Below the pieces are notes generated by a model, which saw nothing but the letters and a program-made list of their open reading frames with translations, was not told the origin of the DNA and did not search any database. The translations under genes were made by a program, and so were the position numbers. This document shows positions 76-32,000 of a DNA stretch of 32,000 bases, in pieces; the stretch's first letter is position 1, and each line of letters opens with the position of its first letter. The DNA comes from an uncultured archaeon (GTDB lineage Archaea; Micrarchaeota; Micrarchaeia; Micrarchaeales; CABMGC01), in contig OY969902.1 in NCBI GenBank assembly GCA_963704435.1, forward strand, positions 540,001 to 572,000. The letters run 5' to 3'.

Positions 76-663
76 ATGGATTTCTGGGGAATTTACAAAA
101 ATTCGGAGATGTCTCCGGGTTTCGGGCAGGCGAGGCTGACGCTCTGCGCGAGGGACAGGATACATATTTCCAACTCCGCGATCGCGGATTACTGCACCCC
201 GATTGGGCCGGACACCGGATTCTCCAGGAAATACGACGAGAGGTCGAGGTACGTCCTCGCCGGGGACCTGACCTATGACCTGCTGGTCTCGATTTACGAC
301 GTGAATTCATCGCGCGCCTTCCTGCTGAGACTATCCAATCCCCTGAGCGAGATCGCGTTCAAGAGAGTGGCGGCCACCATTAAATCGCTGGCCAGGCCCA
401 ACCTCGAGATGCGCGTCATAGGATTGCAGAACGGCGCCACGGGTCCGCTGGGAACGGTGCGCGAGCTGATCAAGCATGCGAAGTTCAGCCTGCAGGAGGT
501 CGACATCTTCGGCGTGGAGATGAGGAACGTGGCGTTCGACCTCAAGCAGGGGATGGCGTTCGACGTGCTCCTTCTCGACAGGCCGTACGCCAGGGGCGAG
601 CTGGTCAACAAGGCGAAGAGGGAGGAGTTCGACGCCAAGAAGTCGGAGTTCAAGCTCCAGTAG
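76..663 (+). CDS. hypothetical protein, no family recognised
   Basis: The track frame is open over 61..663. The first ATG is at 76, about 25-30 nt downstream of an A/T-rich TATA-like box (aaattatttaaac, about 41-53), which suggests a leaderless start. I can assign no catalytic or binding motif. Confidence 0.5.
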   Translation: MDFWGIYKNSEMSPGFGQARLTLCARDRIHISNSAIADYCTPIGPDTGFSRKYDERSRYVLAGDLTYDLLVSIYDVNSSRAFLLRLSNPLSEIAFKRVAATIKSLARPNLEMRVIGLQNGATGPLGTVRELIKHAKFSLQEVDIFGVEMRNVAFDLKQGMAFDVLLLDRPYARGELVNKAKREEFDAKKSEFKLQ

Positions 664-1216
664 CAGGGGGCGGGGACTGCAGCTTCAGCTCGAGCAGGTC
701 GGTGTAGACCGGACCCTCAGCGCCAAGCACGCTCTTCTTGAGGACCACTGACCTGGCCTCGAAGGAACCGAAGTCGGTCTGCGCGCGCTCGTTTATAGCG
801 CGCAGCAGTTCCTGGCGGTCCCTGACGCGCTTCGCCCTGGCCACGGTCATGTGCGGCGTGAAGCTTTCCTCTTCGAAGGCGATGCCGCCCTTGGAAAGCG
901 CGTCGCAGAGCCTCTGCCGCAGCTCGAGCAGTTCGGCAGCGCCCTCCTTCACCTCGGCGAACACGATCTTTATGAAATCTGGAGAGAAGCATGAGACCCC
1001 CTTCAGGGAAATCCTGAAAGGCCGGAATTCCACGCCGCTGATCGCCGATGCCGCCCTTTCTGCATCGCCTTCGCTTATCTCTCCGAGGAACAGCAGCGTA
1101 AGGTGGACCGCCTCCCTCTTCGCGAATACCAATCCCGGGAAGGCCATGCCGTACTTCAGGTCCTCGACCTTGTCCTTCACCTCGGCAGGCACATCGATCG
1201 CTATAAACGCCCTCAC
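650..1216 (-). CDS. thpR: RNA 2',3'-cyclic phosphodiesterase / 2'-5' RNA ligase (2H phosphoesterase, LigT/ThpR family)
   Basis: 188 aa with the two H-x-T/S-x motifs of the 2H superfamily (HLTLLFLG and HMTVARA) at typical spacing. Size fits LigT/ThpR. Its 3' end overlaps the convergent gene 76..663 by 14 nt. Confidence 0.8.
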   Translation of the reverse strand: MRAFIAIDVPAEVKDKVEDLKYGMAFPGLVFAKREAVHLTLLFLGEISEGDAERAASAISGVEFRPFRISLKGVSCFSPDFIKIVFAEVKEGAAELLELRQRLCDALSKGGIAFEEESFTPHMTVARAKRVRDRQELLRAINERAQTDFGSFEARSVVLKKSVLGAEGPVYTDLLELKLQSPPPATGA

Positions 1217-10596: not shown

Positions 10597-12183
10597 ATGG
10601 AGCGCATAAAGACGGAGCTTGCTGAGCTGACAAACCAACTCGGAAAGCCATTAAATGACGACCGTGGATACGCAAATTGCGAGTCCATTGAAGAGAAAGC
10701 GCGGCATATCCTGTATTCATCCACTCTGAGAGATGGATCTGAGCTAACAAAACTGTCCCTGCTTAGCTGCATAACATCAGGAGACTATTGGCACGCGTGG
10801 GACTCTCTTGGAAAGATGTGGCCCAGACTTGGCGAGGAGGATCGCGATTTCTATCTTAAAGCAACGCTATATCAAGCATATTCGGGGCCGTCGAGTTTTG
10901 GCAATGTCTGGATTCTTGGGAAATACGACAATGCGGAATTGAGCGGAAGCGGGATGCTCAAGGATCGCCTCTCTGAAGGAGAACTTAAGGATGTGGTAAA
11001 CAGGGCCGTCTGGGAGTTCCTTAATGGTCTCTACACATCTCCAGGTTTTAGTATTCCCCGCGATGATTATGCCTTACTCAACAAGTATTTCGGATACGTC
11101 GATTTCTCGAAGACGAAAGAACTCAGATCCGACAAGCCACTCATTGCGCTCTTAAGTGGCTGGCCTGACGACGCTTACAAGAGCGCATTCGAGTCTGCAA
11201 GAGGAAACATCGACTGGGAATCTGAAGTATGGCTGGCGCACCCCATAATTGACCAGATATTCAGAAACGTCGTATACAGAGAAGATTGTGGATTCGAGTG
11301 CAACTTAGGCAGATCCACTATGATTAAGAGGGCGCAAATCAGCCTCGAGAAGTACGGCAATTACATGAATGATCCTCTAGTGCAATCGATGCTGAAGGAG
11401 TGGTTGGGGGAATCGGTTGTATTTGTAAACGCATACGATGATACGGCTGATGATGCGGTGCCGTGCATAGATTTTCTCTTAAAATACATTGACTCTTCAG
11501 AGGAGGATAAGAAGCAGTTGGTGTGCCAGTTCCTACCAAAGGAAAAGGACTTGTACACGTATCTTATCCATTCGAGGTTCCCTAAGCGCCTACTTACAAA
11601 TGACACCTTGCACGAAGTCCAGGATCAGTTGCTCGCCTGGCTCAATACAGAGCACCTTGGCAAGAAAGACCTTCTTGAATTCATCGGTCTGACAAAGAAC
11701 GCGGCGTCAATGGATTTCTTGAATCAAGAAACTGCCCAGACGCTATTGAAATCCGCACTAGATGCCTATGCCAAATTCAAGCCCAGGCCGGCAACGGATT
11801 TGGTGCTCGAAATGCATCGCAACCTCGATGATCTACTCAAGCTCGGCCTCATAGAGCAGCAGGACTATTTTGAAAAGGGTTTGATCTGCGTCTCCGACCT
11901 ACGACTTAGGAAGAAAAATGAGTTGGCGTACGATCTTGAAAGAAAATTGAACACCATTAAATATGGAAAGGGAGAGGGACTGGAGGCAGTAAAGACGCAA
12001 ATACGCGCTGAACATGCATCTGCCGAGAAGCTTCAGGCGAGCGCGAAGACGCGGGAACGCCGTGGACGCCGTAGCCATCACAGGCAGGTCCAGGCCATGC
12101 GCAGGAGATCCCCGTCTCACAAGTCCGGAAATGGCCATGAACAGTCGCATCTCGACGCTTTTGTAAGTACGATTAGAGAGTGA
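10597..12183 (+). CDS. hypothetical protein P1 (528 aa), paralogue of the next gene; basic Arg/His/Ser-rich C-terminal tail
   Basis: Long open frame in a low-GC patch. It shares a domain of about 230 aa with P2, for example LSEGELKDVVNRAVWEF / ISEGELKECVNEGFWEL and WPDDAYK...WLAHPIIDQIF..VVYRED / WPDSKYK...WLLCPIIEQILYRED. No known family recognised. Confidence 0.6.
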   Translation: MERIKTELAELTNQLGKPLNDDRGYANCESIEEKARHILYSSTLRDGSELTKLSLLSCITSGDYWHAWDSLGKMWPRLGEEDRDFYLKATLYQAYSGPSSFGNVWILGKYDNAELSGSGMLKDRLSEGELKDVVNRAVWEFLNGLYTSPGFSIPRDDYALLNKYFGYVDFSKTKELRSDKPLIALLSGWPDDAYKSAFESARGNIDWESEVWLAHPIIDQIFRNVVYREDCGFECNLGRSTMIKRAQISLEKYGNYMNDPLVQSMLKEWLGESVVFVNAYDDTADDAVPCIDFLLKYIDSSEEDKKQLVCQFLPKEKDLYTYLIHSRFPKRLLTNDTLHEVQDQLLAWLNTEHLGKKDLLEFIGLTKNAASMDFLNQETAQTLLKSALDAYAKFKPRPATDLVLEMHRNLDDLLKLGLIEQQDYFEKGLICVSDLRLRKKNELAYDLERKLNTIKYGKGEGLEAVKTQIRAEHASAEKLQASAKTRERRGRRSHHRQVQAMRRRSPSHKSGNGHEQSHLDAFVSTIRE

Positions 12184-12188
12184 TAAAT

Positions 12189-13103
12189 ATGACAACTATG
12201 ACTATAGATGTGGTTCCTGCAATCATAAACACAGACCGTATGGAGTTCGTGAATCGCGAGTTTCCTCTCGCAGTGAAAAGTGGTCTAATCCATGGACCGG
12301 CGCCGGAAACGCTATCGCTCAGAGACAAGGCCTCAGGGCTGGAAGTGGTATTGAGGAAGTCTCCAAAGGTAGAGGAATTACTGCTGTACGATTATATTGA
12401 ACGTGGCAGTTTCTGGAATGCGGGCATATCGCTTGAGCGAATCAAGCAAAGGATTGCAAATTGGAAGTATCATCTCTATGCTGAAGTGATAAAGTCACAG
12501 GCGATGCAGAACAAGACGGGTGGTGGCGCGGATACGGGCCACGCGTGGCTGGTGGAAGCTCACAAGAAAGGCTGGCTCAAGGGCCACATTTCTGAAGGCG
12601 AGCTCAAAGAGTGCGTCAATGAGGGTTTCTGGGAGCTCATGAATGAATATTTCTATCCTCCACATGCCCATATAACCGTTTTCTCAAAAGTACCGGACAT
12701 TGACAAATACAATACATTGATGTCGTATTCACAGCACCTTGACCTCTCCAGGGCGAAAGAGTTCAGAGAGAAGTTCGGCCTTATCGAGCCGCTCGAATGG
12801 AGGAAAGGATATGCGGATAATAGTCACACATCAGGAGCGAAGTACGACTGGCCTGATTCCAAGTACAAAGATGCAGTAGCCGTGGCCCTTGGCAATGAGG
12901 CCTGCAATACAGATACTGCGGCCTGGCTCCTGTGCCCTATAATCGAACAAATACTGTACCGCGAAGACAATCAACCGTGCTCTTCGGATGAAGTCGCCGG
13001 AATACGCGAGTTAGAACCATACAAAAAGTACCTGGACGAGCCTGATGTAAAGTCTCTAATTCAGCAAATAATATTGCATTTTAGGGATGAATACGGATAC
13101 TGA
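12189..13103 (+). CDS. hypothetical protein P2 (about 304 aa), paralogue of P1
   Basis: The open frame begins at GTG 12180, which overlaps the P1 stop (gtga). The first ATG is at 12189. Similarity to P1 is as listed above. The lowest-GC line counted in the window lies here (37%, line 12661). Confidence 0.6.
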   Translation: MTTMTIDVVPAIINTDRMEFVNREFPLAVKSGLIHGPAPETLSLRDKASGLEVVLRKSPKVEELLLYDYIERGSFWNAGISLERIKQRIANWKYHLYAEVIKSQAMQNKTGGGADTGHAWLVEAHKKGWLKGHISEGELKECVNEGFWELMNEYFYPPHAHITVFSKVPDIDKYNTLMSYSQHLDLSRAKEFREKFGLIEPLEWRKGYADNSHTSGAKYDWPDSKYKDAVAVALGNEACNTDTAAWLLCPIIEQILYREDNQPCSSDEVAGIRELEPYKKYLDEPDVKSLIQQIILHFRDEYGY

Positions 13104-13142
13104 GAGCTCCGGGCGGGGCTGGTGTGCAGGCACATACCACGC

Positions 13143-13152
13143 TTTTAAATAA
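13143..13152 (+). promoter_or_regulatory. TATA-like box for tRNA-Ser
   Basis: ttttaaataa is centred about 27 nt upstream of the tRNA 5' end at 13175, the canonical archaeal TATA-to-start spacing. Confidence 0.5.
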
Positions 13153-13174
13153 TGTTAATCATAGTTATTACTGC

Positions 13175-13289
13175 GCCAGGGTGGCGGAATCCGGTATCGC
13201 GTACGCCTGGAAAACAGTCTCGCAAGCGTATGGCTCTCGCGAGCCTTTTGGGTTCAAAAGCAGTTTTGCTGAAAATCCCAACCCTGGCG
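13175..13289 (+). tRNA. tRNA-Ser(GGA) with two introns (12 nt at 37/38; 17 nt in the T-loop at about 59/60)
   Basis: Acceptor GCCAGGG/CCCTGGC, discriminator G, 3-bp D stem GCG/CGC with an 11-nt loop, anticodon stem TACGC/GCGTA. Long variable arm GGCTC-tcgc-GAGCC (class II), T stem TTGGG/CCCAA. Removing 13213..13224 and 13259..13275 restores loops CTGGAAA and TTCAAAT and gives an 86-nt mature tRNA. It overlaps track ORFs 13124..13324 and 13152..13385. Confidence 0.85.
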
Positions 13290-13372
13290 GTTATGCTCCA
13301 CACGATGCTTGCGATTGGTTTTAATCTTTATCAGGCGTATTTAGTATCGCAATTGTTTGCTGGATTGACTAC

Positions 13373-13855
13373 ATGGCGGAGCTAAGCGAGTCCGGACTCA
13401 TAGAGAGGGAGCTGACGCTGAGGAACCTCAGGCTCACGAAGGAAGTGCTAGAGACTCGCAGGTCGATCGTCAGGTGGCTGGCCCTCTCGCTCGGCGTGCT
13501 CAACCCGGGTGAATCCAGGCTCAGCGGCATCGCCGTCCTGGATGCGCTGGTGCACTTCCAGTTCATCGCGAGGACAGACCCAACCGTCAGCGAGCTAATG
13601 GAGTACATCGGTAAGAACTGGGAGGCCATGAATGAGAAGACGCTCAGGTACCACCTGCTCCGCATGAAGAACATGGGCCTCGTGGAGAACTCGCAGGGAA
13701 GGTTCAGGCTCAGCCCACCCAACACGGGCGACAGGTTCGACGCCCAGACCTGGGCGACCGGGCTCTATGAGAAGGACTGCAAGGAGATCGCCGCCAAGAT
13801 AGGCGATGCCATAAAGGAACTGAAAAACAAGAACACGATGGGAGGATCGATATGA
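13373..13855 (+). CDS. winged-helix DNA-binding protein (putative transcription regulator)
   Basis: 160 aa. The central segment TVSELMEYIGKNWEAMNEKTLRYHLLRMKNMGLVENSQGRFRL looks like a helix-turn-helix followed by a wing. The stop overlaps the next ATG (atga, 13852). Confidence 0.5.
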   Translation: MAELSESGLIERELTLRNLRLTKEVLETRRSIVRWLALSLGVLNPGESRLSGIAVLDALVHFQFIARTDPTVSELMEYIGKNWEAMNEKTLRYHLLRMKNMGLVENSQGRFRLSPPNTGDRFDAQTWATGLYEKDCKEIAAKIGDAIKELKNKNTMGGSI

Positions 13856-25790: not shown

Positions 25791-26510
25791 ATGAAGAACA
25801 AGAAGCATACTAATCCTGGACGCAAAGTGATATCGAAGAAGAGGGTGGCGGCGAGGAGGCCCGCGCCGAGGAGAACGGCAAAGCCGTCCAGAGTTGCGCC
25901 CGCAAGGCGCGTCGCCGCGAAGAAGGCAGCTGGCGGGGCGAGGGAGGCGAAAGCGAAGGAGATGCTTAGGGTTGCGGGAGTGCTCGCGGCCGAGAAGAGC
26001 AAGGAGAAGAAGGCGAAGATCGACGAGGTGGTCGGAAAGGCCTCCTTCTCGGAGTTCATAGCACAGAACGTAGGCATGCGGGCGGTGGACATAATAAAGC
26101 TGATAAACGTGCCGCAGACGGACGAGAGCGTCGCCGCCGAGCTGGGAATGAAGATAAACGAGGTGAGGCGCATCCTCAACGTGCTCAACGGTTACGGCGT
26201 CGCGCGGTATGACACCAACAAGGACAGCAAGGGGTGGCTGACGTTCAGGTGGCGCATCGACGGAGATAGGCTGATGGCGCTTAGCGCCACGGTCGACGCC
26301 AAGAAGCCCGAGACCGCGTACAGGCTCTCCGAGGACTGCAACGACTTCTTCTGCTGCGACAAGTGCTACGACGAACAGAAGGCGATCCTTCCGTTCGATG
26401 CTGCTTTTGAGAACAAGTTCCGCTGCGACGTTTGCGGCGGGAAGCTGAGAAGGCTCAATAAGGACGAGGTATCGTCCCTCTTCGCGGAGGAGGGGACCCG
26501 CGCCTTCTGA
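25791..26510 (+). CDS. tfe: transcription factor E (TFE-alpha, TFIIE-alpha homologue) with a basic N-terminal extension
   Basis: The winged-helix region FIAQNVGMRAVDIIKLI...ESVAAELGMKINEVRRILNVLNGYGVARY and the zinc ribbon CCDKC...CDVCGG match TFE. The first 57 residues or so are Lys/Arg/Ala/Pro-rich (22 K/R in the first 60). An internal Met58 (25962) would give a TFE of typical length, 182 aa. Confidence 0.8.
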   Translation: MKNKKHTNPGRKVISKKRVAARRPAPRRTAKPSRVAPARRVAAKKAAGGAREAKAKEMLRVAGVLAAEKSKEKKAKIDEVVGKASFSEFIAQNVGMRAVDIIKLINVPQTDESVAAELGMKINEVRRILNVLNGYGVARYDTNKDSKGWLTFRWRIDGDRLMALSATVDAKKPETAYRLSEDCNDFFCCDKCYDEQKAILPFDAAFENKFRCDVCGGKLRRLNKDEVSSLFAEEGTRAF

Positions 26511-26549
26511 ACAAAGCTTTTATAGGTTGGGTGCCTTTTTATTACGTAA

Positions 26550-26699
26550 AGCGAGGTAGGGTAGCCTGGAGTGCCCGTCGGGCTCATAAAATACGGCTGC
26601 GGAATACCGCTGCTGCCTTCTAGACAAAATCTAAAGACCAGCCATTTGCTTGTTTTGTGGGAAACCCGAAGATCGGAGGTCCAAATCCTCCCCTCGCTA
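26550..26699 (+). tRNA. initiator tRNA-Met(CAT) with a 75-nt intron at 37/38
   Basis: Acceptor AGCGAGG/CCTCGCT gives the A1:U72 pair. Anticodon stem TCGGG/CCCGA gives three consecutive G:C pairs. Loop CTCATA|A. BHB fold: central helix CTCA (26583-86) / TGGG (26658-61), with 3-nt bulges TAA (26587-89) and AAA (26662-64). Intron 26589..26663. The T-loop reads TCCAAAT, with C at position 55, which is unusual. Confidence 0.85.
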
Positions 26700-26711
26700 T
26701 ATACCCCTCAC

Positions 26712-26805
26712 TTCCGCTATTCGGGCATCTTGTATAATATTATATAAATAAAGAAACAACATAAAATGAATTGAATGAGCCGGAGACCGCTTCAGAATAG
26801 CGGAA
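26712..26805. repeat. 11-bp perfect inverted repeat bracketing the A/T-rich gins promoter region
   Basis: ttccgctattc (26712-26722) and gaatagcggaa (26795-26805) are separated by 72 nt that include tataatattatataaataaag. A direct tacccct lies just outside each arm (26702-08 and 26809-15). Confidence 0.6.
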
Positions 26806-26826
26806 CTCTACCCCTGTGTGATTGAA

Positions 26827-27309
26827 ATGTCATTGACGATAACCTCCGATCTCCTGTTCTCGAGGCTGAACGAGGAAAGGGAGAAGGGGGCGCTCACGTC
26901 CTTACCCAAGGAGTTCTACAGCGAGGCCCGAGCGTTCGTCGACAGCATGAATGACGATGCCTCCGGGGCAAAGCAGAAGCAGACGGCCAACGCGCGCAGG
27001 ATGCTTCACGAGCTCAAGGAGAAGCGGAAGCAGAAGATACTGATATACCTCGCGTACGACAAGCCCCTCCCGCAGCCCATGCCCGACGAGGAAGAAGCTT
27101 TATATAACGAAATACGGAGAATATTAAACAGAACGGGAGAAGCGAGCGAGAAGACCGCGCGCATAAAGATCCTCTCGGACGTGCCGGAGATACTGACTTC
27201 GGAAGGCAGGAAGATAGGCCCGTACCAGCAGGGCGCAGTCGTCGAGATGCCCCGCGGCGCCGACGCTGATTTCGTGCTTAAGAACAAGATCGGAGAGCTC
27301 ATAGCTTAG
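26827..27309 (+). CDS. GINS complex subunit (Gins51/Gins15-like), tentative
   Basis: About 160 aa. The N-terminal helical part (LFSRLNEEREKGALTSLPKEFYSEARAFV) and the C-terminal small domain (IKILSDVPEILTSEGRKIGPYQQGAVVEMPRGADADFVLKNKIGELI) follow the archaeal GINS pattern from memory. The track start is GTG 26818; an ATG is at 26827. Confidence 0.5.
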   Translation: MSLTITSDLLFSRLNEEREKGALTSLPKEFYSEARAFVDSMNDDASGAKQKQTANARRMLHELKEKRKQKILIYLAYDKPLPQPMPDEEEALYNEIRRILNRTGEASEKTARIKILSDVPEILTSEGRKIGPYQQGAVVEMPRGADADFVLKNKIGELIA

Positions 27310-27316
27310 TGGTTTT

Positions 27317-27598
27317 ATGAAAATTGAAAGCGAGATCAGGGTGTACTGCCCCTACTGCAATAAGCATACATTGCACAAGGTGAAATTCCCCCCGAAGAAT
27401 GCGCAGCGCGGCCTCAGCTTCGGAACCAGGAAGCACCTCAGGCGCACGAAGGGATACGTGGGCAGCGTAGCGGTGAGGCTCAAGCCGAAGAAGCTCGGCA
27501 AGAGGCAGAAGATGCTGCTCGAGTGCAAGGAATGCAAGAAATCTGTGGAGCGCATATTCGGCCAGCGCACGAAGAAGAAGCTGGAGATAAAGAGATGA
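27317..27598 (+). CDS. rpl44e: 50S ribosomal protein L44e (eL42)
   Basis: 93 aa, C4 zinc motif CPYCNKHT...CKECKK, basic composition, RTKGYVG motif. Confidence 0.9.
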   Translation: MKIESEIRVYCPYCNKHTLHKVKFPPKNAQRGLSFGTRKHLRRTKGYVGSVAVRLKPKKLGKRQKMLLECKECKKSVERIFGQRTKKKLEIKR

Positions 27599-27626
27599 GG
27601 CGCGTCCCTTGATAGTACAGAAGAGC

Positions 27627-28355
27627 ATGCCCGAACTCGGCGAAATCGTCCTCGTGAAGCTGAACAAGATAATGCCCCACGGGGCGTACTGCCAGCTCGT
27701 GGAGTATGGCGTCGACGCATACCTCCCGATAGGGGAAGTCGCGTCCGGCTGGATAAAGAACATACACGAGCACATAAGGGAGGGCCAGCGCGACGTCGCG
27801 AAGGTGGTGTTCGTCGACCCGAGCAGGAGGGCCGTCGACGTCTCGCTGAAGAAAGTCAGCGTGAAGGAGAAGAAGGGCAAGATAAACGACTTCGCGCTCG
27901 AGAAGAGGGCGGAGAAGTTCTTCATGCAGGCCCTCGAGGCCGCGGGCAAGACCGCGAAGGCAGAGGAGATCAAGAGGAAGCTGGCGCAGAAGGTCCCGAC
28001 GTACCTGGAGCTGCTGGACCAGGTGCACGAGAACCGGCTGGAGGCCGGCCTCCTGGACGAGGACGTGAAGGCCGCGTTCTCAGAGATAATCGCGAAGAAC
28101 ATCAAGCCCAAGGTGTACTCGGTGACATACACCGTGGTGCTGTCCGCCTCGAACTCGAAGGGCAACGTGTCCCTGATACGGAAGCTGTGCGAGGAGGTGG
28201 AGCGCCTCGGCGTCTCGGTGCTGTACGAGGGCGCACCCCACTACAAGATCATGGCCGAGGGGCCCAGCTACGCGGACGCGGAGGGGAAGATAAAGGAGGC
28301 GCAGCAGGTCCTCCAGAAGTATTCCCCGTACTTCAGCATATCGATCAAAAAGTGA
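27627..28355 (+). CDS. eif2a: translation initiation factor aIF2 subunit alpha
   Basis: N-terminal S1 domain MPELGEIVLVKLNKIMPHGAYCQLVEYG.DAYLPIGEVASGWIKNI, a helical middle domain and an alpha-beta C-domain. The track start TTG 27609 is probably too early; an ATG is at 27627. Confidence 0.9.
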   Translation: MPELGEIVLVKLNKIMPHGAYCQLVEYGVDAYLPIGEVASGWIKNIHEHIREGQRDVAKVVFVDPSRRAVDVSLKKVSVKEKKGKINDFALEKRAEKFFMQALEAAGKTAKAEEIKRKLAQKVPTYLELLDQVHENRLEAGLLDEDVKAAFSEIIAKNIKPKVYSVTYTVVLSASNSKGNVSLIRKLCEEVERLGVSVLYEGAPHYKIMAEGPSYADAEGKIKEAQQVLQKYSPYFSISIKK

Positions 28356-28359
28356 ACGG

Positions 28360-29103
28360 ATGAAGGACACCAAGATATACTACAGGAAGGTCAAGCTGAA
28401 CGACCCCATCCTGATCGTCGGCCTCCCCGGGATGGGGAACGTCGGAAACCTCGTGGCGGAGCACCTCAAGAACGAGCTGAAGGCCAAGAAGTTCGCCACC
28501 CTCTACTCGCCGCACTTCCCATTCCAGGTCATGATGAACAGCAGCGGCAGCTTCAGGCTCGTGAGCAACAGGTTCTACTGCCACCGCGCCAAGGGGAAGA
28601 GGGACCTGGTGATACTCCTCGGCGACGCCCAGCCGCTGTCCCCGGAGGGGCAGTACGACGTCAACGAGCGCATCGTCGAGTTCTTCAAGATGCTGGGCGG
28701 CAGGGAGATATACACGATCGGAGGCTATACGATAAAGAACGAGTACGTCAGGGCACCGCGCGTCTTCGGGGTCGCGACGGACGCGAAGACGATGGCCCGC
28801 ATAAGGAAGCATGGCGTCGTGGCTCCGCTAGTGACCGGGACTCCGATATTCGGCTCGGCCGGGCTCGTCGCCGCATTCTCCAAGAGGCACCGCATCAGCG
28901 CAGCATGCCTGATGGGGGAGACCGGCCTGGTGGACGTCGACGCGAACTCGGCGAAGGCGGTGCTGCAGGTCATAAACAAGCTGCTGGGGGTCGGAGTGGA
29001 CCTCGAGAACATGGACCGGCTCAAGACGGAGACCGAGAAGATGCTCAAGGAGCTGGAGGAGTCGTCAAAGGCATTCACGGGCTCGACCAACTACATAAGG
29101 TAA
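28360..29103 (+). CDS. PAC2-family proteasome assembly chaperone (PbaA/PbaB-like; former COG1938)
   Basis: ILIVGLPGMGNVGNLVAEHL, YSPHFPFQV, LLGDAQP...GQYD and TIGGY follow the archaeal PAC2 pattern. Its position after aIF2-alpha matches the conserved archaeal neighbourhood. Confidence 0.7.
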   Translation: MKDTKIYYRKVKLNDPILIVGLPGMGNVGNLVAEHLKNELKAKKFATLYSPHFPFQVMMNSSGSFRLVSNRFYCHRAKGKRDLVILLGDAQPLSPEGQYDVNERIVEFFKMLGGREIYTIGGYTIKNEYVRAPRVFGVATDAKTMARIRKHGVVAPLVTGTPIFGSAGLVAAFSKRHRISAACLMGETGLVDVDANSAKAVLQVINKLLGVGVDLENMDRLKTETEKMLKELEESSKAFTGSTNYIR

Positions 29104-29141
29104 GAAGTCATTCGCTTAGGGCGGCAGACGCCGCGATCCGC

Positions 29142-29227
29142 GCGCCAGTAATCTAACCTGGTTAAGATACGAGCTTCCCAAACCTCGGAATAAGCTCGCG
29201 ATCCGGGTTCAAATCCCGGCTGGCGCA
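29142..29227 (+). tRNA. tRNA-Gly(CCC) with a 12-nt intron at 37/38
   Basis: Acceptor GCGCCAG/CTGGCGC, discriminator A, D arm ATCT-AACCTGGTTA-AGAT, anticodon stem CGAGC/GCTCG, T arm CCGGG-TTCAAAT-CCCGG. Helix TTCC (29175-78) / GGAA (29187-90) is followed by 3-nt bulge TAA. Removing 29181..29192 yields loop TTCCCAA. Confidence 0.85.
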
Positions 29228-29250
29228 GTATTTCAGGGTGCCAGCACCGC

Positions 29251-29916
29251 TCAGACGAGCGGGATCAGCAGCATGCACATCAGGAAGCCCGCGAGCGAGC
29301 ACATGAAGTTGGATGTGTGCTTGTTCCCTATGCCCTTGTCCTCGTAGTAGCCGAACGCGGAATCCACCAGGTTCCCGAAGAACCCCGAGAACACGGCTAT
29401 CGCGACACCCTGCCAGCCCAAACCGAGCCCTAACGCGCTCGCCCCTATTATGGCCGAGCCGACCAGGCTGGCGCCTAGCCCGACCCAGGTGACGCCCCCC
29501 GACGCCCCCTTCCGGGTCTTCTTCATGGTCAGGAGGACCGTCGGCACCCCATCGAGCACCCCTATCTCGCTGGCGAACTTGTCGGCCATCACCGCGCAGA
29601 CGCTGGCGACGAAAGGCAGTGCCAGGAGCCCCTGCGGCACGGAAGGCAGCCAGGGGCCCGCCCAGTACAGGGCCGCGGCAAGCACGGGCACCGCCCCGTT
29701 AGCGAGCACGTTCTGCCAGCCCCTGGAAGGTTCATAGACCCCTAGGCCCTGCTTCTTCACCCTGCCCACGCTCGTGATCACGGCGGATAGCGCCAGGAAC
29801 AGGACAAGGTCGAGGAGGAAGAGGATCCCGCGGTTTTTCCCCAGGACCAGCACCAGCGCCCCTATCAGCAGGGCAAGAAGGATCCCCTTCAGGTTCAGCG
29901 TCAGGATCTTGTCCAT
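29251..29916 (-). CDS. DUF92 (TMEM19-like) integral membrane protein
   Basis: Multi-TM protein with a KKTRKGASGGVT.VG..ASLVGSAIIG segment typical of DUF92. The track ORF extends to 30075, but its N-terminal 53 codons look non-coding. Met54 (ATG 29916) begins the first TM and has a tttaaaagg box upstream. Confidence 0.55.
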   Translation of the reverse strand: MDKILTLNLKGILLALLIGALVLVLGKNRGILFLLDLVLFLALSAVITSVGRVKKQGLGVYEPSRGWQNVLANGAVPVLAAALYWAGPWLPSVPQGLLALPFVASVCAVMADKFASEIGVLDGVPTVLLTMKKTRKGASGGVTWVGLGASLVGSAIIGASALGLGLGWQGVAIAVFSGFFGNLVDSAFGYYEDKGIGNKHTSNFMCSLAGFLMCMLLIPLV

Positions 29917-30173
29917 GAAATTCCATCGTTTTGAAAGTCCAGAAATCAGATAGCCTTTTAAACCTAAGGAACATAATGAATTACAGGTTCTCATACTGAC
30001 CCTCCTTGTGGGGGAAAGTATGAAACTGGTCGCCTTGCCAGCACACTTCTGTGTGCTGGCCTTTTCCTTATTCACTGCTTATAAGAATAAAAACCCTATT
30101 CACGGTGCGCCGAGTCAAAACCTTTAACTTCTTTGTCGTGCCTAATTCTCATGTTTAACGGAGCGGCGGTCGG

Positions 30174-31124
30174 ATGGCGAAAGAGAAGAGCATCAAGGAG
30201 ATAGAGGACCTTCCCGGAATAGGGCCAGCCACCGCCGAGAAACTGCGCGCCGCAGGGTACGAAAACATCGAGAAGGTGGCCGCCTCGGCGCCCTACGTCC
30301 TGTCCGAGCTGCTGGGGATAAGCGCCGAGAACGCCAAGAAGGCCATAGAGGCAGCCAGGCAGGCGACGAACATAGAGGTAGAGACCGCCCAGCAGGCCTA
30401 CGAGAAGAGGAAGGCCATAGGAAGGATAGCCACGGGCTCGAAGGGCCTGGACGAGCTGCTCGGCGGAGGGGTGGAGACCAACGGCATAACCGAGGTCTAC
30501 GGCAGGTTCGCCACCGGGAAGACCCAGCTGGGCTTCCAGCTCTCGGTCAACGTCCAGCTCCCTATCGGGAAGGGGGGCCTTGACGGCGCGGTGCTGTTCA
30601 TAGACACCGAAGGCACTTTCAGGCCTGAGAGGATCGAGGCGGTCGCGAAGGCGGCGGACCTTGACTCCAAGAAGATATTGGACAACATATTCGTCTCAAG
30701 GGTCACCACGACCGACCAGCAGATCCTGACGATTGAGAGGGCGGACAAGCTGGTCAGGGACAAGAACGTCAAGCTCATAGTGGTCGACTCGCTCATGTCG
30801 CTGTTCAGGTCGGAGTTCATGGGCAGGGGCGCGCTGAACGAGAGGCAGCAGAAGCTCAACCAGCACATACACAAGCTGCAGAAGCTGTCCGACGACCACT
30901 CCCTCGCGGTCTACATAACCAACCAGGTCATGGACAACCCAGGCATCCTGTTCGGCGACCCGACGACTCCGGTGGGAGGGAACATCGTGGCGCACGCGGC
31001 CACGACCCGGCTCTACATAAGGAAGAGCAAGGAGGACAAGAGGATAGTCCGGCTGGTGGACTCCCCGAACATGCCCGAGGGCGAGACCGTCATAAAGATA
31101 ACGACCAACGGGATAAAGGATTGA
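30174..31124 (+). CDS. radA: DNA repair and recombination protein RadA
   Basis: 316 aa. N-terminal HhH domain (IEDLPGIGPATAEKLRAAGY), Walker A GRFATGKTQ, Walker B LIVVDSL, and FIDTEGTFRPERI. Confidence 0.95.
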   Translation: MAKEKSIKEIEDLPGIGPATAEKLRAAGYENIEKVAASAPYVLSELLGISAENAKKAIEAARQATNIEVETAQQAYEKRKAIGRIATGSKGLDELLGGGVETNGITEVYGRFATGKTQLGFQLSVNVQLPIGKGGLDGAVLFIDTEGTFRPERIEAVAKAADLDSKKILDNIFVSRVTTTDQQILTIERADKLVRDKNVKLIVVDSLMSLFRSEFMGRGALNERQQKLNQHIHKLQKLSDDHSLAVYITNQVMDNPGILFGDPTTPVGGNIVAHAATTRLYIRKSKEDKRIVRLVDSPNMPEGETVIKITTNGIKD

Positions 31125-31168
31125 GCCTCCTTTTATTCCAGATTTCCGCGCTTTTTGGGTGATACGCC

Positions 31169-31942
31169 ATGCTATCCATAATCGGCCTCGGCTTGGACTT
31201 CCGGGACATATCCTTGAGGGCGATGGACGCGGCGAGGAAGGCGGACGTGCTGCTCCTGGAGGCATACACCTCATTCCTGCCGGACGGATACGTCGAATAC
31301 TTGGAGAAGGAGGCCGGGAAGAAGGCTGCTCCCCTGAAAAGGCAGGACCTTGAGGACAACGTGAAGACAACGGTCGGCAGGGCAAAGGACATGGACGTCG
31401 CCCTGCTAGTTCCTGGGGACCCCCTCGTCGCGACGACGCACCACCTGATCATCAACACGGCAAGGAAGCTGGGCGTGGAAGTCGCGGTATTCCACTCGGC
31501 AAGTGCGTTCACGGCCGCCATCGGGGAGAGCGGTCTTGACCTATACAAGTTCGGCCCTACCGCCACGGTACCCTTCTGGCACAGGAACTACGAGCCGACA
31601 TCGTTCCTTGACGTGGTGGATAGGAACCTGAGGAACGGGGAGCACACGCTCCTGCTTCTGGACGTGCAGCAGGAGCAGCACAGGCCCATGAGCATATCCG
31701 AAGCGGTCGGCATACTGAAGGGCGCGAAGGCAAAAAGGGGTGGCGGCCTCATAAGGGACGGCCTAAAGGTGATCGTACTCGCCAATGCGGGGAGGGAGGA
31801 CAGGTTCGCAGACTACCTTGCGCTTGGGGAGGCGGAAAAGAAGCTAGGGAAGGCACTTTCAGGCAAGGCGCTGTCGATCATCGTGCCCGCTAAGATGAGC
31901 TTCGCCGAAGAGGAGAACCTAAGCTCCGCGCTTTCCGGTTGA
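31169..31942 (+). CDS. dph5: diphthine synthase
   Basis: 257 aa. MLSIIGLGL...ISLRA......AD.LLLEAYTS and LVPGDPLVATTH are typical of the Dph5 tetrapyrrole-methylase-fold enzymes. Confidence 0.85.
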   Translation: MLSIIGLGLDFRDISLRAMDAARKADVLLLEAYTSFLPDGYVEYLEKEAGKKAAPLKRQDLEDNVKTTVGRAKDMDVALLVPGDPLVATTHHLIINTARKLGVEVAVFHSASAFTAAIGESGLDLYKFGPTATVPFWHRNYEPTSFLDVVDRNLRNGEHTLLLLDVQQEQHRPMSISEAVGILKGAKAKRGGGLIRDGLKVIVLANAGREDRFADYLALGEAEKKLGKALSGKALSIIVPAKMSFAEEENLSSALSG

Positions 31943-32000
31943 CCTGCCCTTCACCTTCCAGTACTTGAGCGTATAGACGAGGAACAGCCCGCTCACTCCT
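31919..32000 (-). CDS. 3' end of a convergent gene running off the window (C-terminal 26 codons)
   Basis: The reverse frame reads ...GVSGLFLVYTLKYWKVKGRSTGKRGA*, a hydrophobic segment followed by a basic tail. The stop is at 31919..31921, overlapping the dph5 3' end by about 24 nt. It is too short to be sure. Confidence 0.3.
   Translation of the reverse strand, partial: GVSGLFLVYTLKYWKVKGRSTGKRGA

Follow-up and report, generated by a model that had tools for sequence, protein, structure and literature searches.

A Micrarchaeota tRNA-Ser(GGA) gene interrupted by two introns, in the anticodon loop and in the T-loop

Introduction

Does a stretch of archaeal DNA in which standard tRNA finders report nothing encode a tRNA and, if so, how would its interrupted transcript be matured? 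The question is raised by positions 13175–13289 of the window (the whole stretch of 32,000 nucleotides analyzed here), for which a sequence-only reading, made without database searches, had proposed a hidden class II tRNA-Ser(GGA) gene with two introns, a weakly paired one in the anticodon loop and a BHB-type one in the T-loop. The same reading held that non-canonical intron positions need a splicing endonuclease of relaxed specificity, so that the locus should say something about the enzyme of its host.

Multi-intron tRNAs are known in ARMAN-1 and ARMAN-2 and in the Thermoproteales (PMC4033280). In ARMAN-2 (Candidatus Micrarchaeum acidiphilum), tRNA-Pro(GGG) carries strict introns at positions 53/54 and 59/60 and tRNA-Cys(GCA) a 13-nt relaxed intron at 59/60; the ε2 EndA cuts both strict 37/38 (Ile) and relaxed 59/60 (Cys) ARMAN-2 substrates in vitro (Fujishima et al. 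2011, PMC3239211). Cleavage of 59/60 and relaxed introns in ARMAN-2 is experimentally established for the ε2 class (PMC3239211, PMC3488258), and its broad specificity has been tied to an ARMAN-specific loop (Hirata et al. 2012, PMC3488258; 2025 structure, PMC12397907). Among the genes of the window are archaeal housekeeping genes for class I LysRS, Lhr helicase, gyrase A/B, TFE, GINS, aIF2α and RadA. The named homologues of its LysRS are mostly from Candidatus Micrarchaeota, and an identical LysRS is encoded on an 853-kb NCBI contig.

Results

Identification of the tRNA-Ser(GGA) gene

A sensitive scan of positions 13100–13360 (261 nt) with the Rfam tRNA model RF00005 gave a full-length match at 13175–13289, covering model positions 1–71 of 71. 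With both introns in place the match scored 33.2 bits (E = 1.7e-5), against a cut-off of 29 bits, and unaligned inserts were left in the anticodon loop (14 nt) and the T loop (18 nt). When both inserts (13213–13224 and 13259–13275) were removed, ARAGORN returned tRNA-Ser(gga) of 86 nt with a standard class II cloverleaf, comprising a 7-bp acceptor stem, a D arm, a 5-bp anticodon stem, a 7-nt loop with U33 and the GGA anticodon, a long variable arm, a 5-bp T stem, a 7-nt TTCAAAT loop and discriminator G73. With either insert kept, ARAGORN found no tRNA or the wrong one; the tRNA-Ala(ggc) called when only the T-loop intron was removed was rejected, as the intron is misplaced in that call. The unspliced RNA folds with a minimum free energy of −46.6 kcal/mol (z-score −3.69), and 0 of 200 shuffled sequences folded as well. 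These results confirmed that positions 13175–13289 of the forward strand are a class II tRNA-Ser(GGA) gene interrupted by two introns, as had been proposed.

The gene reads GCCAGGG-TG-GCGG...CGC-G-TACGC-(19-nt loop)-GCGTA-T-GGCTC TCGC GAGCC-TT-TTGGG-(24-nt loop)-CCCAA-CCCTGGC-G, and the CCA end is not encoded, G73 being followed by GTT. A TATA-box-like element upstream (Table 1) is conserved in the syntenic relatives, and A/T-rich boxes of this kind occur at equal upstream distance in most of the 40 unique orthologous genes described below; from its sequence and position it would serve as the promoter.

Standard ARAGORN and Rfam runs on the window returned four tRNAs, all outside 13175–13289. 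ARAGORN found no tRNA at this site in either the window or the unspliced gene, with or without intron mode (-i). Rfam likewise gave no match there at the gathering threshold or in E-value mode over the whole 32 kb; of the Rfam runs, the 261-nt scan alone detected it. Standard finders miss the gene because two short introns interrupt it.

Table 1. Coordinates of the tRNA-Ser(GGA) gene, its parts and other features; positions without a locus prefix are those of the window.
Feature	Position	Strand	Details	Basis
tRNA-Ser(GGA) gene, 115-nt pre-tRNA body	13175..13289	+		RF00005 match; ARAGORN on spliced form; fold z-score
Acceptor stem	13175-81 / 13282-88	+	GCCAGGG / CCCTGGC; discriminator G 13289	sequence
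T stem	13248-52 / 13277-81	+	TTGGG / CCCAA	sequence
TATA-box-like element (putative promoter)	13143..13152	+	TTTTAAATAA; centred ~27 nt upstream of tRNA position 1	sequence
Exon 1, tRNA positions 1-37, 38 nt	13175..13212	+	acceptor 5' strand, D arm, anticodon stem 5' strand (13202-06), C32 U33 G34 G35 A36 A37	Rfam, ARAGORN, coordinate check
Intron 1, 12 nt, canonical position 37/38	13213..13224	+	AACAGTCTCGCA	orthologue inserts
Exon 2, positions 38-59, 34 nt	13225..13258	+	A38, anticodon stem 3' strand (13226-30), variable arm (13231-47), T stem 5' strand (13248-52), T54-A59	ARAGORN, alignment, coordinate check
Intron 2, 17 nt, non-canonical position 59/60	13259..13275	+	AGCAGTTTTGCTGAAAA	orthologue inserts
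Exon 3, positions 60-73, 14 nt	13276..13289	+	T60, T stem 3' strand, acceptor 3' strand, discriminator G73	ARAGORN, coordinate check
Relaxed bulge-helix-loop (BHL) motif, anticodon loop	13207..13225	+	helix CTGG 13207-10 (bases 32-35) / CTCG 13219-22; pairs C13207-G13222, U13208·C13221, G13209·U13220, G13210-C13219; 5' bulge AAA 13211-13; 3' bulge CAA 13223-25; loop 13214-18 (5 nt)	sequence; 36 orthologous arms
Strict hBHBh' motif, T arm	13248..13281	+	h = T stem (5 bp), stacked on H = TTCA 13253-56 / TGAA 13270-73; staggered 3-nt bulges AAA 13257-59 and AAT 13274-76; h' = GCA 13260-62 / TGC 13267-69; loop GTTT 13263-66	RNAalifold; covariation; sequence
Two ORFs (528 and 307 aa) between LysRS and tRNA-Ser	10597-13103	+	in the window and L001/L002	
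LigT/2'-5' RNA ligase-family gene	650-1216	-	PF02834, PF13563	
Second hidden tRNA gene	26550-26699	+		Rfam 42.5 bits, small-range sensitive scan only
tRNA-Gly(CCC) gene	29142-29227	+		
EndA gene, 385 aa	L106:6243-7400; L105:2834-3991; L104:3206-4363			
Tyrosine-recombinase genes directly 3' of tRNA-Ser	L006:12456-13712; L050:3363-4505		proteins 28% identical	

Introns and splice motifs

All helix, bulge and loop coordinates given in the sequence-only reading agreed with the sequence on checking. The T-loop intron has the strict hBHBh' (3-4-3) geometry, in which a 4-bp helix lies between two 3-nt bulges on opposite strands and is flanked by an outer and an inner helix. Its excision leaves TTCAAAT, and excision of the anticodon-loop intron leaves CTGGAAA. 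The latter intron, correctly described beforehand as the weaker of the two, departs from the strict geometry in three ways: U33 is mismatched with C, one pair is G·U, and the inner helix is missing. It matches the relaxed hBH/BHL introns of PMC3239211. For the same three reasons its exact fold is the least secure part of the structure. As there are runs of A at the junctions, the exact cut sites may shift by 1–2 nt with the same product.

Comparative series

The 115-nt gene recurs without change on two near-identical ENA contigs (L001 and L002), and three relatives in which the tRNA gene is syntenic with that for LysRS (L004, L005 and L006) were compared with the window. In L004, whose LysRS is 87% identical, both introns are present and the flanks have diverged; the tRNA genes differ by only two substitutions (13215 and 13221), both inside intron 1. 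L005 (LysRS 68% identical) also has both introns, the T-loop intron being 15 nt long with an inner helix GC-GATA-GC. L006 (LysRS 67% identical) has intron 1 and no T-loop intron, and its T-loop, TTCAAAT, is exactly the predicted splice product of the window gene; this natural allele scored 46.5 bits against RF00005. A scan of GTDB representatives with LysRS peptides gave no confirmed relative, so that the species of the window is not one of these representatives. In the window and L001/L002, two ORFs lie between LysRS and the tRNA gene (Table 1); L004 has neither, its tRNA gene following LysRS by 54 nt, so that close relatives differ here by an insertion or deletion of 2.7 kb. Searches with the two ORFs in Pfam, PHROGs and PADLOC gave no matches, nor did an exact look-up of the 307-aa ORF return a record.

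Orthologues were collected by searching a species-representative genome collection for the exact invariant 5' 22-mer, which returned 94 stretches, nearly all labelled Micrarchaeota and a few Marsarchaeota or Nanoarchaeota. Together with L001–L007 and the window these yielded 50 Ser(GGA) genes, of which 40 were unique sequences. Collecting by the exact 22-mer and the 3' strand of the acceptor stem makes the acceptor stem and D arm invariant in this set by construction, and divergent second Ser(GGA) copies would escape it. Each of the 43 species-representative Micrarchaeota assemblies with a Ser(GGA) gene had one such gene, and the gene in the window is probably the sole Ser(GGA) gene of its genome.

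The insert at 59/60 was present in 30 of these 43 assemblies and absent from 13, and no assembly had both forms. Counted by sequence, 31 of the 40 unique genes had a 59/60 insert, of 13–43 nt, and 9 had an intact TTCAAAT. Cutting after the second bulge base restored TTCAAAT in all 31 unique insert-bearing genes, and the intron-less alleles of the 13 species share the junction predicted by excision. The central helix of intron 2 was fully paired (4/4) in 27 of the 31, while the inner helix occurred as GCA/TGC, GCT/AGC, GC/GC, GA/TC, TAAC/GTTA, GCAAT/ATTGC or GCATA/TATGC. The bulge bases on the exon side (A58, A59 and T60) were invariant across orthologues and those on the intron side varied (AAA/AAT; AAT/TAT/ATT/TCT/ACT), the pattern expected if the exon–intron boundaries sit where the motif puts them.

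An insert of 10–16 nt at 37/38 was found in all 36 unique anticodon arms. The pair formed by base 32 was always C-G and that by base 35 always G-C, with G-C or G-U at base 34. The base opposite position 33 was unpaired in 30 of the 36 arms, always as a pyrimidine–pyrimidine mismatch. The alleles of L005 (12366–12477) and L098 have C33 rather than U33 (loop CCGGAG...), an unusual base at this position of an elongator tRNA.

Covariation was examined in an alignment of 25 sequences. With the full structure 95.4% of cells were paired, compared with 25–46% when the partners were slid, and the observed covariation score was reached by 0 of 500 shuffles. All three pairs of the inner helix of intron 2 showed compensatory changes on both sides. 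RNAalifold, unprompted, returned the cloverleaf with the T stem stacked on the 4-bp central helix and the 3-nt 3' bulge. The strict 3-4-3 motif noted in the T-loop is thus kept in relatives with covariation, and the sequence check and the comparative data together bear out both introns at the positions first given. JGI metagenomes, scanned for close alleles that have or lack the T-loop insert, yielded one contig (L102), with both introns, unspliced.

Splicing endonuclease of the host population

tblastn with EndA against the window and 101 loci gave no match. An exact look-up of the TP_methylase gene of the window (31169–31942) retrieved L104–L107; L106 and L104 are 100% identical to window positions 28000–32000 and 29840–32000, respectively, i.e. 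to its last 2.2–4 kb. On these contigs a 385-aa tRNA_int_endo gene starts ~1,045 nt past the window end, after a reverse-strand membrane-protein gene (LPG_synthase_TM). The enzyme is tied to the window through the contigs identical to the window end, the gene lying outside the window's own record. The ARMAN-2 ε2 EndA sequence, taken from PDB alignments, had 1,415 homologues; the best 120 of these were 368–406 aa long and, where named, mostly from Micrarchaeota, with a few labelled Marsarchaeota and one Nitrososphaerota. One homologue, in L103, follows the genes TFE-GINS-L44e-aIF2α-PAC2-DUF92-RadA-TP_methylase, the same order as in the window at 25791–31942; in L103 the EndA gene comes directly after TP_methylase.

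Residues 11–385 of the 385-aa protein align in one stretch to residues 13–387 of ARMAN-2 ε2 EndA (4fz2_A; PDB 4FZ2, PMC3488258), with E = 2.4e-146 and 54% identity from end to end, so that the alignment spans all three units (αN, α and βC) in a single polypeptide. The catalytic triad Y233/H249/K280 corresponds to ARMAN-2 Y236/H251/K282, and the specificity-loop lysine K158 (in GSYKASDR) to K161 (in GTYKVSEH), which confers broad specificity, residue roles being those given in PMC3488258. A second loop, which in ARMAN-2 has K241/K244, is instead Arg-rich (ARPMRRDDRG). Judged by its sequence, the EndA of the host population is an ε2-type three-unit enzyme, which answers the question of endonuclease architecture posed by the sequence-only reading. 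A LigT/2'-5' RNA ligase-family gene in the window (Table 1) is distinct from the RtcB-type tRNA splicing ligase that would be expected.

The expectation that the locus would tell of its host's enzyme was borne out, the same population encoding an ε2-type EndA ~1 kb past the window end. The argument that the non-canonical position calls for relaxed specificity needs refinement in one respect: the relaxed intron is the canonical one at 37/38, and the non-canonical T-loop intron is strict. By the motif rules of PMC3239211 and PMC3488258, it is the anticodon intron that would most need a broad-specificity enzyme.

Discussion

The locus is very probably a functional tRNA-Ser(GGA) gene of a Micrarchaeota (DPANN) archaeon with two protein-spliced, BHB-type introns. 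We infer the following course of maturation. The gene would be transcribed from the TATA box ~27 nt upstream, and the 115-nt body would fold into the cloverleaf and two extra helices, each between exon bases (32–35 in the anticodon loop, 54–57 in the T-loop) and the 3' end of the intron. The three-unit ε2 endonuclease would then cut after the second base of each 3-nt bulge, and the four cuts (13212/13, 13224/25, 13258/59 and 13275/76) would release introns of 12 and 17 nt and leave exons of 38, 34 and 14 nt. An RNA ligase would join the exons to the 86-nt tRNA, with CCA added afterwards. The transcription start, cleavage at four sites, ligation, CCA addition and the order of these events are all predicted steps.

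Could the locus instead be a decaying tRNA pseudogene whose loops have acquired insertions, with the serine UCC/UCU codons read by another gene? The silence of the standard finders would suit such decay, which is nevertheless very improbable: the exons hardly differ, if at all, in relatives with 67–87% identity in LysRS, in contrast to the diverging flanks and introns; in both inserts a cleavable motif is maintained, with compensatory changes; the TATA-like box is retained upstream; and one Ser(GGA) gene per genome was found in the 43 assemblies, including the complete ARM-1 genome. It is extremely improbable that the anticodon-loop intron alone is spliced and the T-loop insert retained in the mature tRNA as an expansion. 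Contacts between T-loop and D-loop belong to established tRNA structure, and a T-loop of 24 nt would abolish them. The 3-4-3 geometry that positions EndA is moreover always kept despite an insert length range of 13–43 nt, 13 species have no insert and a standard 7-nt loop, and the genome has a 54%-identical counterpart of the ε2 EndA that cuts at 59/60 in vitro (PMC3239211). Nor is it credible that a small ORF is what the site encodes, the tRNA-like fold being incidental. The only ORFs overlapping the site are the two small ones, already dismissed on first reading, that exist mechanically at 13124–13324 (66 aa) and 13152–13385 (77 aa); gene callers on identical and near-identical contigs call no gene there, the RNA structure covaries, and the lengths of the orthologues (96 and 110–118 nt) differ by amounts that are not multiples of three, which breaks the reading frame.

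A further explanation, compatible with a functional, spliced tRNA gene, concerns why the introns are kept. According to the Randau and Söll hypothesis, as summarised in PMC4090602, tRNA introns break up the anticodon-loop and T-arm attachment sites of virus and plasmid integrases and would be maintained by selection on that account. Retention of the 59/60 intron in 30 of 43 species and of the 37/38 intron in 36 of 36 unique anticodon arms agrees with this idea, as does a tyrosine-recombinase gene (PF00589) that starts 57 nt after the L006 allele lacking the T-loop intron. Against it, a homologous integrase gene lies right after a tRNA-Ser(CGA) with both anticodon-loop and T-loop introns in L050, and a permissive enzyme under which introns are retained neutrally accounts for the data just as well. 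The L006 and L050 cases point opposite ways and cancel out, and we regard an integrase barrier as unlikely. A search for an att repeat in L006 found none. The tRNA-Ser(CGA) of L050, a MAG labelled Nanoarchaeota, is 180 nt in length, both of its introns being long.

The closest known systems are the ARMAN-2 tRNA-Pro(GGG) and tRNA-Cys(GCA), which come from the same phylum and have an intron at the same 59/60 site in the T-loop. The gene described here shares with tRNA-Pro(GGG) the presence of two introns and a strict hBHBh' motif at 59/60, but its second intron is at the canonical 37/38 and not at 53/54, and it differs from both in being a class II serine tRNA with a long variable arm. Its pairing of motif and site is also opposite to that of the two ARMAN-2 test substrates, Ile (37/38, strict) and Cys (59/60, relaxed), the strict motif lying at the non-canonical 59/60 and the relaxed one at the canonical 37/38. 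Like canonical 37/38 introns, e.g. that of Haloferax volcanii tRNA-Trp, intron 1 pairs its 3' end with anticodon-loop bases; it differs from them in being only 12 nt long and of BHL type, with a conserved pyrimidine–pyrimidine mismatch opposite U33 and no apparent guide-RNA function.

The Thermoproteales (Crenarchaeota) offer a parallel in having BHB-type introns at canonical and non-canonical sites together with a broad-specificity endonuclease; they have one to three such introns per tRNA gene (Sugahara et al. 2008, as summarised in PMC4033280). Their enzyme is a heterotetrameric (αβ)2 with a Crenarchaea-specific loop, in contrast to the ε2 enzyme here. For their introns a recent spread by transposition has been proposed, whereas this 59/60 intron is found at a constant position in a single tRNA throughout most of a phylum. 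Since multi-intron tRNAs and 59/60 introns have already been described in Micrarchaeota and Thermoproteales, the layout of the gene is not new in kind. What is new is modest: a single 59/60 intron persists phylum-wide, and the strict and relaxed motifs are reversed with respect to intron site. Current understanding is unchanged by the locus.

Beyond this, we entertain, with more doubt than confidence, the combined possibility that the 59/60 intron is old, vertically inherited and held at its site by selection, that the strict/relaxed substrate separates EndA specificities, and that the mismatch opposite U33 is a real feature of ε2 substrates. Were this so, the history of the 59/60 intron, with its length drift of 13–43 nt, would differ from that of the recently transposed introns proposed for Thermoproteales, and the pyrimidine–pyrimidine mismatch would be a recognition or folding feature of ε2 substrates. 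Its strict motif being the non-canonical one and its relaxed motif the canonical one, the gene is a natural substrate that would separate the positional from the structural specificity of EndA; such a reversed substrate can test whether a narrow-specificity enzyme fails on account of intron position or of motif shape. The comparative series, with 30 species that have the 59/60 intron and 13 that do not, is usable for studying gain, loss and size change of non-canonical introns, and belongs to a lineage for which there is structural work on the ε2 endonuclease.

Other tRNA genes

A second hidden tRNA gene of the window (Table 1) has a ~75-nt insert after CUCAUA in the anticodon loop, with a central helix (CUCA/UGGG) compatible with a BHB. 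Its CAU anticodon, its A1:U72 pair and its GGG/CCC anticodon stem point to an initiator tRNA-Met of archaeal type, interrupted by a long intron at the canonical site. The Ser(cga) call that ARAGORN made here in intron mode was rejected as a miscall. The tRNA-Gly(CCC) gene has a 12-nt intron at 37/38 in a mini bulge-helix-loop like that of intron 1, with a perfect TTCC/GGAA helix and a 5-nt loop; default ARAGORN gave it the label '???' and a 4-base anticodon. Run with defaults on the window, ARAGORN and Rfam thus missed the Ser(GGA) and the initiator-like tRNA, and the anticodon that ARAGORN gave for tRNA-Gly(CCC) was garbled. Should this hold generally, some of the tRNAs counted as 'missing' from small DPANN genomes would be tool artefacts.

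Among the other serine tRNAs of Micrarchaeota, tRNA-Ser(UGA/CGA) genes in loci L009–L096 (e.g. L023, reverse strand, and L084:350-473) have anticodon-loop introns of ~38 nt with conserved CTGA ... GTGATGC, resembling box D and box C of C/D small RNAs; by this resemblance they might be intron-encoded methylation guides. The tRNA-Ser(CGA) genes of L022, L025, L038 and L094 carry an insert of 11–15 nt on the 5' side of the anticodon stem/loop, at a non-canonical position near 31/32.
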